Below, in pieces: positions 47,400 to 50,387 of a stretch of DNA of 64,000 nucleotides. How positions within the stretch are numbered: position 1 is the stretch's first letter; every line of letters starts with the position of its first letter. The position numbers were made by a program, and so were the translations under genes. Where the stretch lies: NCBI RefSeq assembly GCF_057098645.1, contig NZ_CM169472.1. One strand, written 5' to 3'. The notes below the pieces were generated by a model. It worked only from the letters and a program-made list of their open reading frames with translations. It was not told the DNA's origin and made no database searches.

Positions 47400-49232
47400 T
47401 TACGCAGGCAGTAGATTGTGTGCTGCCAGATCGGCGGCAATATCTTCCAGCCCCAGACGCTGCAATGTTTCGCGGGTTGGGCAACCAAGCTGTGGGTCCC
47501 AGCCCATTTCTTTGTAGAACATCGTGAGCGAAGCATGCATATCGTCACGATCCATTTTGTCAGTACCTTCAGTAAAGACCGGGATCTGCGGATCCTTGTC
47601 GAATACCCAGGAACAGATAAGATCGTGTTCATTACGCATATCTTTGGTTTGCATCAGTTTCACCGTGTAGGCACGATGCAATGTAAAGATACGCTCTGCA
47701 GCTAAATCTAATTTTTCCTGAGTCATCTCTTCGCCAGTGATCGCTTTGAAGAATTTGGCTTCAAGCGCCAGATCGCCCCGATAATTACGGCTTTTCAGCG
47801 GCGAAACGGTCATTGGCCAGACCCAGTTGCACAGGGTGACGGCGTTATGCAAACAGACCCGCAACAGCGACCACTTAGCATATTTAATTTTTGCGTCATT
47901 GATCGGCGTGTAGTTTTTGGTTTCATCGTAAGCATCTTCAGAACCAAAAAGCTCTTTCGCCACTTCACGCTGCAGTTTCAATGGCAAACCCGAACCAATA
48001 AAATTGATATGGGTATGCGTCATGCAGTCACGGTTGAACATACAGTTAACAATGGAACCGACCTGCGCTGACGCTTCATTGGCATGGTGAAGCGGATAGC
48101 CAAACGGCGACCAGAGTTTATTTTTCGCGTAGCCCCAGTACTCTTCACCCAAATTCCAGCGTTCTGCGATGGCATATGAACCATCAGCCAGGTGGCTCAG
48201 CTCACCCACACGATGCGCCAGACGGTAGTAAAAATCTTTAATGAAGTTAACGTCACCCGCTTCCAGTTGATCCCAGCGAATTTCCGCATACTCTTCAGCT
48301 GGCAGAACACGCTTGAACACCCCTTTGCTGTAACAGTAGGTAAAGTCGCGATGCAGCTGCCCGTAGTTACACCATAGGCCGTAGTCATCGAACAAATTCA
48401 GACCAACAAGGTTACCAATCACACGACCATCGTCTTTATCTTCAAAATCTTTCGGCCCGTTCGGGAAGATGGTGGTATGGACAAAGTTTGCTACACAAGT
48501 GTTACCACCTGTGCTGGGCACGCCAAACTCTTTCACCCGAGGAATATTCATTTGGGTCATACAACGGATCGGGCAAGAGTGGCAGCCGCTCATTTTTACT
48601 GTGTATTTCTCTGCCGCCGGTCCTAAGTCAAAAACGGATTTATAGGTACGAAAGCCGACCGTATTCTGATTGCCTGGCGGAATTTCACCCGTTTCAATCG
48701 GACCACCTTCAGCCGCGCCCCAAAACAGCCCTTTACGTGCTGTCCAGCGTGACTTGGGATCTGAATACTCTGCCCACGATTGCGGCGTACTTGGCACGAC
48801 ATGGTTGTTATTCGCACCGATAAGTTCAGTCATCATGTAATCGTTGAGACGCTTCATCTCCTGACGATCGGCAATGTTGACCCCTTTCGTCCCTTCAACC
48901 GCAATCGCTTTCAGGTTTTTCGAACCCATTATTGCGCCAGTTCCCGCACCACCGCTGTGGTTACGGCTATTCAACATGCCAGAGAGAGGAACAAGGTTTT
49001 CCCCAGCCTGACCAATAGCCGCCACACAGGTTTCCGGACTGGTCAATCGACAAATTTCTTCCGTCGTTGCGCGCGTCCCTTTTCCCCATAAGAAATCTGC
49101 TTTTTCCAGGCTAACTTTGTCATCTTTAATCTTCAGCCATACCGGTGATTTCGCCTTCCCTTCGATAATAATGACGTCGTAGCCAGCGAATTTCATTTGC
49201 GCCGCAAAAAAGCCACCCATATGGGCATCGAC
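47400..49232 (-). pseudogene. ydhV: ydhV (aldehyde:ferredoxin oxidoreductase-family enzyme) truncated at its 5' end by IS1; about 610 of roughly 700 codons remain
   Basis: The reading frame runs without an in-frame start straight into the IS1 left end at 49233 (...VDAHMGGFF); the first Met at 49220 is internal in the full-length protein as I recall it. Confidence 0.8.
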
Positions 49233-49287
49233 GGTGATGCTGCCAACTTACTGATTTAGTGTATGATGGTGTTTTTGAGGTGCTCCA

Positions 49288-49563
49288 GTGGCTTCTGTTT
49301 CTATCAGCTGTCCCTCCTGTTCAGCTACTGACGGGGTGGTGCGTAACGGCAAAAGCACCGCCGGACATCAGCGCTATCTCTGCTCTCACTGCCGTAAAAC
49401 ATGGCAACTGCAGTTCACTTACACCGCTTCTCAACCCGGTACGCACCAGAAAATCATTGATATGGCCATGAATGGCGTTGGATGCCGGGCAACCGCCCGC
49501 ATTATGGGCGTTGGCCTCAACACGATTTTCCGCCATTTAAAAAACTCAGGCCGCAGTCGGTAA
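49288..49563 (+). CDS. insA: IS1 InsA (transposition repressor / DNA-binding protein)
   Basis: 91-aa [27 protein letters not shown]... matches InsA. Confidence 0.93.
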
Positions 49564-49985
49564 CCTCGCGCATACAGCCGGGCAGTGACGTCATCGTCTG
49601 CGCGGAAATGGACGAACAGTGGGGATACGTCGGGGCTAAATCGCGCCAGCGCTGGCTGTTTTACGCGTATGACAGGCTCCGGAAGACGGTTGTTGCGCAC
49701 GTATTCGGTGAACGCACTATGGCGACGCTGGGGCGTCTTATGAGCCTGCTGTCACCCTTTGACGTGGTGATATGGATGACGGATGGCTGGCCGCTGTATG
49801 AATCCCGCCTGAAGGGAAAGCTGCACGTAATCAGCAAGCGATATACGCAGCGAATTGAGCGGCATAACCTGAATCTGAGGCAGCACCTGGCACGGCTGGG
49901 ACGGAAGTCGCTGTCGTTCTCAAAATCGGTGGAGCTGCATGACAAAGTCATCGGGCATTATCTGAACATAAAACACTATCAATAA
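49482..49985 (+). CDS. insB: IS1 InsB reading frame (expressed as InsAB' transposase by -1 frameshift)
   Basis: 167-aa ORF in the -1 frame overlapping insA; the A-run slippery site lies near 49535-49545. Confidence 0.9.
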
Positions 49986-50387
49986 GTTGGAGTCATTACC
50001 TACGCTGCTGACTCTGTCCCCAACACCAGATATTTTCCCTAACCCGATAGTGTATGAGAAAAGATTTAACGCCGATAAACTAATCCTTTATGGTTAGGAG
50101 AAAAAATAATGTGGTTATTCTGGGCTCTTAACATTGATCATTATCAATTAAAATTACAAAGCAAGAAATTATAAGTGAACTGATATTTATTATCATTTGA
50201 AATAAATTTAACTTAAGCGACAATTATTTGTGACGGTCATTGCAGAAAATAAAAATAATATTATCGCTATAAATTAAAATACATACCGAAATTCGTATAA
50301 TTTCAGCAGTTGTTATTTAGAATGATTAACTGGACCGCAACTGAAGCAAGAATATCAGGATGAAGCTTATCGCCTCATCCTGAATGG

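Follow-up and report, generated by a model that had tools for sequence, protein, structure and literature searches.

Intramolecular replicative transposition of IS1 is the classical route to adjacent deletions, and IS1-induced adjacent deletions were reportedly described by Reif and Saedler in 1975 for an IS1 in the gal operon. The 8-9-bp target duplication is the mark of a simple insertion event and not a property of IS1 itself. The classical IS1 deletions share with the locus analysed here a single intact IS1 at the junction, the lack of a target duplication and a short deletion that takes neighbouring genes, and in both cases one flank is taken to be that of the original insertion site and the other a new transposase target. 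They differ in that the ancestral insertion in the window (the whole stretch of 64,000 nucleotides that was analysed) is assigned by parsimony and in that the event is natural and not laboratory-selected. The IS150 deletions of the long-term evolution experiment are also comparable, as an IS copy without duplication bounds a deletion (14 bp to 49 kb there); the authors attributed them to an insertion and one or several subsequent adjacent deletions and discussed the same rival explanations (PMC11708052). The same paper states that the usual explanation for IS copies without duplications is adjacent deletion or recombination between IS copies (PMC11708052). Unlike the element studied here, IS150 belongs to the IS3 family, and intermediates were observed there at earlier time points, whereas none was found for the window. 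The deletion in the window is real and is an ordinary textbook IS1 event of a kind already known; no new mechanism is implied.

Analysis of the 64-kb window revealed a single IS1 copy, and its boundaries, ends and reading frames confirmed the complete 768-bp element described in the first-pass annotation (Table 1). The length of about 768 bp and the imperfect inverted repeats of about 23 bp, starting with GGTGATGCTGCC and GGTAATGACTCC, are those of the IS1 family; the termini are canonical (GGTGATGCTGCC at the start and GGAGTCATTACC at the end), with 18 of the 23 terminal bases complementary. A -1 shift at the A6C slippery site yields an uninterrupted InsAB' of 232 aa, as is characteristic of an IS1 transposase frame, and the element is potentially active since its sequence is intact. 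At least 60 records contain copies labelled 'IS1-like element IS1B family transposase' that are 100% identical to it over the 768 bp. This sequence is the commonest IS1B-type variant, carried by many chromosomes and plasmids, and IS1 was found in 4,970 of the 5,426 complete E. coli genomes. Tracing of the donor copy was ruled out by this identity, which also leaves no parental markers for a chimeric-IS1 signature.

Table 1. Coordinates of features at the IS1 junction and in the neighbouring ydh operon (positions are those of the window).
Feature	Position	Strand	Description
ydhW, ydhX, ydhU, ydhT	44419..47387	-	Full-length downstream operon genes, IS1 now between them and the promoter; no indels compared with RM12761
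ydhV remnant	47400..49232	-	Codons 91-700 and stop; 5'-truncated
Left 9-bp flank GGCATCGAC	49224..49232		IS1 target sequence, ydhV-side junction
Complete IS1	49233..50000	+	768 bp; RefSeq label of the variant 'IS1B family'; IRL at the ydhV side, transposase reads rightward
InsA	49288..49563		91 aa
InsB' frame	49482..49985		
A6C slippery site AAAAAAC	49539		
Right 9-bp flank TACGCTGCT	50001..50009		IS1 target sequence, ydhY-leader junction; equals MG1655 L003 9547..9555, 69-77 bp upstream of the ydhY start codon
Retained part of ydhY-fumD intergenic region	50001..50387	-	AT-rich ydhY leader and promoter; 20-26% GC; now faces IS1 IRR
FNR box TTGATcattATCAA	50134..50147		ydhYVWXUT promoter; perfect match
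Terminator-like hairpin	50355..50383	-	Directly 3' of the fumD stop codon; intact
fumD (ydhZ)	50388..50597	-	Intact, transcribed toward IS1

Comparison of the 9 bp outside each end of the element (GGCATCGAC against TACGCTGCT) found no direct repeat, consistent with the earlier claim that the flanks differ. This mismatch is explained by a deletion of exactly 985 bp, the size obtained against MG1655, against O145:H28 strain RM12761 and against the draft genome L023 (GCA_029357705.1). Shifting of the boundary, which is ambiguous by 1 bp as the first G of IS1 is the same as the next chromosomal base, cannot yield a direct repeat because each reference has 985 bp between the two flanks. In MG1655 the left flank stops at 1753560 and the right flank begins at 1754546, and in RM12761 the equivalent of the lost segment is NZ_CP007133.1 2063750..2064734. 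IS1 precisely joins two sequences that, in relatives with an empty site, are separated by this segment and otherwise contiguous, which is the single-copy pattern of an adjacent deletion. The window junctions read CATATGGGCATCGAC followed by GGTGATGCTGCC on the ydhV side and GGAGTCATTACC followed by TACGCTGCTGACTC on the other side; the reciprocal junctions predicted for simple insertions at these sites are AACTAATACGCTGCT followed by GGTGATGCTGCC and GGAGTCATTACC followed by GGCATCGACGACTAAATT.

Missing from the window are 270 nt at the start of ydhV (codons 1-90), a 20-bp spacer, the whole of ydhY (627 nt) and 68 bp of its leader. On the MG1655 locus sequence (L003), the left flank extends to position 8561, 270 nt inside ydhV (CDS 6729..8831), in agreement with the description of IS1 as adjoining ydhV at about codon 90. 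The MG1655 reference does carry ydhY between ydhV and fumD, and the reported absence of this gene from the window is real. These results support the core reading of the first-pass annotation, in which ydhY and the ydhV 5' end were lost in an IS1-associated event, either an adjacent deletion or IS1-IS1 recombination.

With IS1 set aside, only 14 SNPs in 63 kb and, apart from the IS1 locus, no indel distinguish the window from RM12761; so few SNPs mean that the deletion is recent and lineage-specific. The draft genome L023 matches the window at 100% identity over 9,217 and 2,468 bp of flank and has the segment intact, without IS1. The window carries a C124Y substitution in ydhX, and a look-up of this lineage-specific allele returned many assemblies, L023 among them, all those inspected having intact ydhV and ydhY without IS1. 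YdhX C124Y removes an Fe-S ligand cysteine and preceded the deletion in this sub-lineage, an order compatible with relaxed or negative selection on the operon. The window junctions were absent from the 5,426 complete E. coli genomes (300-bp junction probes and a 2.8-kb probe), in which nearby independent insertions only were found, and from metagenome contigs, in which the 32-nt junction patterns gave zero matches. The two junctions, being unique among 5,426 complete E. coli genomes, could act as a lineage marker, and the value of the deletion lies mainly in annotation and strain typing. No intermediate was found in the 24 longest contigs with YdhX C124Y. Across the complete genomes, the metagenome contigs and these 24 contigs, neither an ancestor with IS1 and a duplication at either junction nor a double-IS1 precursor at both breakpoints was found. 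The O145:H28 lineage, the closest to the window, is IS1-poor, as a flank-plus-IS1 query matched 1-5 places per chromosome, equal to 0-4 IS1 copies; in IS1-rich strains the same query matched 36-40 or more places per chromosome.

The locus is best explained by a simple insertion of IS1 and a later adjacent deletion through intramolecular transposition of the element, which is probably, though by no means certainly, what took place. An ordinary insertion with a 9-bp duplication would have occurred at one of the two present junctions, most probably in the ydhY leader at TACGCTGCT, a choice of ancestral junction based solely on analogy and on the AT-rich composition of this leader. Intramolecular replicative transposition from IRL into the nearby ydhV target GGCATCGAC would then have followed, and the intervening DNA would have been lost as a circle carrying one copy each of IS1 and of the duplication. 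We infer this order of events and the transposase, rather than RecA, as the agent of the deletion. Because the lineage is IS1-poor, one insertion and an adjacent deletion are more parsimonious than two insertions within 1 kb and recombination.

The main alternative to adjacent deletion is IS1-IS1 recombination, and when this takes place between two direct copies the final sequence is identical for both routes. According to this alternative, two copies in the same orientation, one duplicating GGCATCGAC in ydhV and the other duplicating TACGCTGCT in the ydhY leader, underwent RecA-dependent recombination that deleted 985 bp and one IS1. The alternative has some chance of being correct, as the sequence it yields is exactly that observed, IS1 repeatedly hits the stretches containing both sites in other strains, and two strains hold two IS1 copies at the locus: J2, with two direct copies in ydhV at a distance of about 1.5 kb, and 1008S19, with two copies at fumD about 200 bp from each other. 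Furthermore, IS-IS recombination has been named a frequent cause of missing duplications (PMC11708052). However, three events are needed against two, in a lineage with about 0-4 chromosomal IS1 copies, while the double-insertion precedents are all in strains with at least 38 copies, and the searches of complete genomes, metagenomes and the 24 longest C124Y contigs found neither a single nor a double insertion at the exact positions.

The same searches also bear on a one-step event, in which an incoming IS1 joined as the 985-bp deletion formed, by double-strand-break insertion or by its two ends attacking two targets. Such an event leaves no intermediate, and none was found in the complete genomes, the metagenome contigs or the 24 longest C124Y contigs, but a missing intermediate among sampled genomes is weak evidence. 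One-step events, with insertion and rearrangement together and without duplication, have been proposed for IS5 and IS481 (PMC11708052); the same study nevertheless found that a prior insertion underlay 14 of 14 IS deletion events in the long-term evolution experiment, and it calls its one-step deletion case explicable by adjacent deletion (PMC11708052). The junctions of the window are precise IS1 ends by typical IS1 target regions, as transposase chemistry predicts, and a one-step origin is considered very unlikely.

Comparative analysis of the locus in other E. coli strains revealed that IS1-caused deletion arose there independently in several of them. In the complete RefSeq genomes of five strains (LR-06, PigCaeca_1, PSS-16, LST200A and KTa005), IS1 bounds a deletion that has taken ydhY together with the 5' end of ydhV. 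As in the window, an IS1 without target duplication separates an N-terminally truncated ydhV from fumD, and ydhY is missing. Their endpoints are all unlike those of the window: the deletions span 1259-1406 bp compared with 985 bp, the left ends lie at L003 8435-8519 compared with 8561, and the right ends lie at L003 9695-9888, in the ydhY-fumD intergenic region, compared with 9547. The FNR box is removed or directly adjoins the deletion in the five strains, whereas the window retains the entire promoter. The KTa005 element has the opposite orientation and is a variant with 95% identity. The five host lineages are IS1-rich, unlike the O145:H28-like window, with 38-39 places matched by the flank-plus-IS1 query in four strains and 19 in LST200A. 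PigCaeca_1 and LR-06 carry the same IS1 variant and agree at the right junction (L003 9804) but differ on the ydhV side (8436 and 8519, respectively), a pattern expected of adjacent deletions extending from one end of a single ancestral insertion.

The five complete genomes are also relevant to a possible assembly artefact, in which two IS1 copies around the 985-bp segment, or a simple insertion, were collapsed or mis-joined. IS1 is longer than short reads, and a collapse of two nearby copies drops about 1 kb and gives exactly this structure. An artefact is nevertheless highly improbable, as the same architecture with other endpoints in complete genomes of five unrelated strains makes the structure biologically ordinary, and the rest of the window is colinear with its relatives, with zero indels.

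All 12 simple IS1 insertions mapped at the locus in other strains carry 8-9-bp duplications, and all six IS1 copies without a duplication (window included) bound deletions of 985-1406 bp. The locus illustrates the rule that IS1 with 8-9-bp duplications represents a simple insertion and IS1 without them a deletion boundary, and it also illustrates repeated independent IS1 deletions between the same two preferred target stretches. Simple insertions were found only 3-7 bp from the window junctions, in PRO_A-1496 (duplication at L003 8565-8573) and in C9 (duplication at 9532-9540), and both window junctions are therefore sites used by the IS1 transposase.

IS1 occurs within a few kb of the locus in about 63 genomes. 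Locus-wide enrichment was rejected, since this number is, by a rough estimate, close to the uniform expectation at about 11 chromosomal copies per genome; fine-scale clustering alone stands out among the IS1 positions. An orientation bias was likewise rejected: the same-orientation matches were an ascertainment effect, and a query with IS1 reversed added 24 genomes, including KTa005. Homology to the IS1 end was rejected as a cause of the hot spot, as matches like that of 9 of 12 bases at ydhV 49144..49155 number 100 in the window against 62 expected. The six independent deletions in unrelated lineages (window included) and the several simple insertions in the same two stretches form the basis for proposing a recurrent IS1 'deletion module', made up of the ydhY-promoter region and a 139-bp ydhV stretch (codons ~86-132), that goes beyond target preference. 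Such a module is unlikely. It might reflect selection in some niches for losing the FNR-induced YdhYVWXUT oxidoreductase, or the channelling of intramolecular IS1 transposition by a particular DNA structure or by a site to which a protein (IHF or H-NS) binds.

The genome is left with a ydhV pseudogene, no ydhY, and ydhWXUT genes that are separated from their promoter, and the strain is therefore probably without the FNR-induced YdhYVWXUT oxidoreductase; the ydhYVWXUT operon, which encodes this anaerobic oxidoreductase, appears to be inactivated. The longest ORF left in ydhV starts at an ATG at 49220 and encodes 606 aa, with Pfam AFOR_N and AFOR_C on the product. An exact-protein look-up of this 606-aa YdhV returned a sole match, Logan contig L007, in which the same ORF results from a 1-bp frameshift and not from IS1.

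The AT-rich stretch beside IS1 had been placed upstream of fumD. Our analysis found that it lies downstream instead, fumD being on the minus strand, and that it represents the ydhY promoter and leader. The FNR box in this stretch is the only perfect match in 64 kb (0.02 expected), and ydhYVWXUT is listed as FNR-activated with a site at -42.5 (PMC3688515). Based on this spacing, transcription would start near 50098 and proceed leftward, and the retained FNR-dependent promoter would now transcribe antisense into IS1. The suggestion that IS1 may affect fumD and pykF transcription found no support, as the fumD hairpin and the whole fumD-pykF intergenic region are intact and the pykF start lies beyond fumD, at a distance of over 1.1 kb. 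Both fumD and pykF are structurally untouched.

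Analysis of the element next to ydhV showed that it is an IS1 by all structural criteria tested. Its ends are canonical, complementary at 18 of 23 terminal positions; InsA has 91 amino acids, the A6C slippery site lies at 49539 and a -1 shift gives an uninterrupted InsAB' fusion of 232 amino acids. At least 60 replicons, chromosomes as well as plasmids, carry copies annotated as 'IS1B family' that are 100% identical to it. Comparison of the 9 bp outside each end found no target duplication, the left flank on the ydhV side (GGCATCGAC) being unlike the right flank on the ydhY-leader side (TACGCTGCT), which confirms the first-pass annotation on this point. 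The loss of ydhY and the ydhV 5' end, also claimed there, is borne out by comparison with E. coli MG1655, which sized the missing segment at 985 bp (1753561..1754545 of NC_000913.3). By the MG1655 annotation it comprised codons 1-90 of ydhV (270 nt), a 20-bp spacer, all 627 nt of ydhY and the 68 bp that precede the ydhY start codon. The breakpoint is ambiguous by 1 bp, the next chromosomal base being the same as the first G of IS1.

The complete genomes nearest to the window are those of O145:H28 strains. RM12761 (NZ_CP007133.1) has intact ydhV and ydhY and a locus without IS1, and is colinear with the window over 63.2 kb with 14 substitutions and no indels besides the IS1 event. A draft assembly (L023, GCA_029357705.1) is closer: its left flank (9,217 bp) and right flank (2,468 bp) match the window with 100% identity, and the intact 985-bp segment is still in place without IS1. 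Since these flanks are identical and RM12761 differs by only 14 substitutions, the event is recent. The alignments indicate that it arose in place within the window's lineage rather than arriving along with foreign DNA on its flanks.

Searches of 5,426 complete E. coli genomes and of the metagenome contigs found neither window junction, and the allele is new to these collections. IS1 has struck the locus repeatedly in other E. coli strains. Five complete genomes carry independent deletions with endpoint pairs that all differ. In the mapped sample at this locus, a duplication always accompanied simple insertion and its absence always accompanied deletion, with no exceptions. In J2 the two IS1 copies are direct, lie in ydhV (duplications at L003 6785-6793 and 8282-8290) and form a composite-transposon-like pair, a ready substrate for recombinational deletion. 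In 1008S19 the 3' part of fumD lies between two inverted copies.

Features of the window (window positions) and IS1 events at the locus in E. coli strains (positions in L003, i.e. NC_000913.3 1745000-1760000). All simple insertions carry an 8-9-bp duplication; deletions have IS1 without duplication and lack ydhY and the ydhV 5' end, and are given as left end / right start.
Feature	Strain	Position	Size or composition	Remark
Complete IS1	window	49233..50000	768 bp	sole copy within the 64-kb window
AT-rich stretch right of IS1	window	50001..50387	20-26% GC	ydhY promoter and leader
FNR consensus TTGATcattATCAA	window	50134..50147		sole perfect match in window; 0.02 expected by chance
Terminator-like hairpin of fumD	window	50355..50383		unaltered
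Simple IS1 insertion	J2, first copy	6793
Simple IS1 insertion	CP61	7047
Simple IS1 insertion	J2, second copy	8290
Simple IS1 insertion	98208 and TKEC21-59	8489
Simple IS1 insertion	GDSC2227PM	8525
Simple IS1 insertion	SWYHX138	8535
Simple IS1 insertion	PRO_A-1496	8573
Simple IS1 insertion	14EC033	9336
Simple IS1 insertion	ES7	9459
Simple IS1 insertion	C9	9540
Simple IS1 insertion	Res13	9597
Simple IS1 insertion	1008S19, first copy	9840
Simple IS1 insertion	1008S19, second copy	10039
Deletion	LST200A	8435 / 9695	1259 bp
Deletion	PigCaeca_1	8436 / 9804	1367 bp
Deletion	KTa005	8450 / 9857	1406 bp	IS1 inverted, variant 95% identical
Deletion	PSS-16	8508 / 9888	1379 bp
Deletion	LR-06	8519 / 9804	1284 bp
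Deletion	window	8561 / 9547	985 bp

A 139-bp stretch of ydhV (L003 8435-8573, codons ~86-132) contains ten different IS1 junction positions; it has 40-48% GC with A/T runs and corresponds to window ~49106-49232 plus the deleted part. On the rough assumption that 59,364 chromosomal IS1 places are spread uniformly over ~5-Mb chromosomes, fewer than two genome-occurrences are expected in this stretch, against at least 13 records observed, a rough comparison that ignores clonal relatedness. The excess points to regional target preference, which has long been known for IS1. For the whole locus, the 39 and 24 genomes with IS1 nearby are, by a rough estimate, about the chance expectation. A same-orientation bias of the IS1 matches was rejected as an ascertainment effect of how the search joins pieces. 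Repeated and independent loss of the ydhY-ydhV' segment in six lineages is mildly interesting, and is most simply explained by target preference.

Deletions of the window's kind were first described for IS1 in the 1970s, and the window event shows no departure from known IS1 behaviour. Events of this kind are discussed in PMC11708052. The first-pass annotation offered adjacent deletion or recombination between two IS1 copies, and both yield exactly the observed sequence. With modest confidence we favour adjacent deletion, in which a simple IS1 insertion would come first, one IS1 end would then attack a nearby target by intramolecular replicative transposition, and the DNA in between would leave as a circle. 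It is favoured because two events suffice, where homologous recombination between two same-orientation insertions takes three, and because the window's lineage is IS1-poor; recombination is less likely and is the main rival. A flank-plus-IS1 query gave 1-5 places per O145:H28 chromosome, meaning 0-4 IS1 copies, and the double-insertion strains carry at least 38. Adjacent deletion is also favoured because PigCaeca_1 and LR-06, with a common right junction, the same IS1 variant and unlike left junctions, present the footprint expected of adjacent deletions starting at one end of an ancestral insertion. We think that the right junction (TACGCTGCT) would be the older one, by analogy and from the more AT-rich target offered by the leader; this is the weakest step. 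No intermediate was found among the 5,426 complete genomes, the metagenome contigs or the inspected contigs with YdhX C124Y. One-step insertion with deletion, proposed in PMC11708052, is improbable, and assembly collapse of two IS1 copies is more improbable still.

By the MG1655 annotation, fumD and every gene of the ydhY-V-W-X-U-T operon lie on the minus strand. The AT-rich stretch, which the first-pass annotation placed upstream of fumD, is therefore downstream of fumD and upstream of the former ydhY. The operon is FNR-activated from a site at -42.5 (PMC3688515, which credits Partridge et al. 2008), and from this spacing transcription is predicted to start near 50098, ~98 nt away from IS1's right end, and to run leftward. 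Thus the kept ydhY promoter would now read into IS1, giving transcripts antisense to its transposase genes. The spacer of the FNR box varies by lineage (TTGATcattATCAA in the window versus TTGATcgttATCAA in MG1655, L003 9680-9693) with perfect half-sites in both, and in LST200A the right junction of IS1 directly adjoins the box. In the ydhV remnant, the AFOR_N domain (Pfam) has lost 90 codons. The ydhW, ydhX, ydhU and ydhT genes are all full length, with 768 bp of IS1 between them and their promoter. IS1 is polar in either orientation, and a functional operon is very unlikely. The ydhV-side end of IS1 showed no outward-facing promoter-like site; the only promoter-like match there is an inward-facing site within the left inverted repeat. 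The suggested effect on fumD and pykF transcription finds no basis for pykF, which starts more than 1.1 kb from IS1, beyond fumD; the entire fumD-ynhH-pykF region is unaltered.

Analysis of ydhX revealed a change at codon 124 (window 46315, TGC to TAC, C124Y) that destroys the first cysteine of the third CxxCxxCxxxCP iron-sulfur motif. Comparison with RM12761 and MG1655 shows it to be derived, and relatives L023-L025 share it. At least 63 blocks of public assemblies contain the C124Y protein; since ydhV and ydhY are intact and IS1 is absent in every one inspected, C124Y predates the IS1 event. Given this earlier change, the operon might, with low probability, be dispensable or disfavoured in certain niches. 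Four derived transitions (window 43382, 44039, 45652 and 46315) lie within 3 kb of ydhS-ydhU-ydhX, giving ydhS V194M and G413S, one synonymous change in ydhU and ydhX C124Y, against only ~10 substitutions versus RM12761 in the remaining 60 kb; this cluster may stem from a small patch of recombination or from relaxed constraint. A near-identical relative (L007 2940-3000; Logan, ERR6099787) has a 1-bp deletion in a ydhV T-run ~25 bp from the window's left breakpoint, splitting ydhV into 88-aa and 606-aa ORFs, which reflects either independent inactivation or an assembly error in the homopolymer. Diverged tandem copies (~96-bp period, 86-92% identity) lie in rsxC at window 4146-4771 and occur in RM12761 as well.
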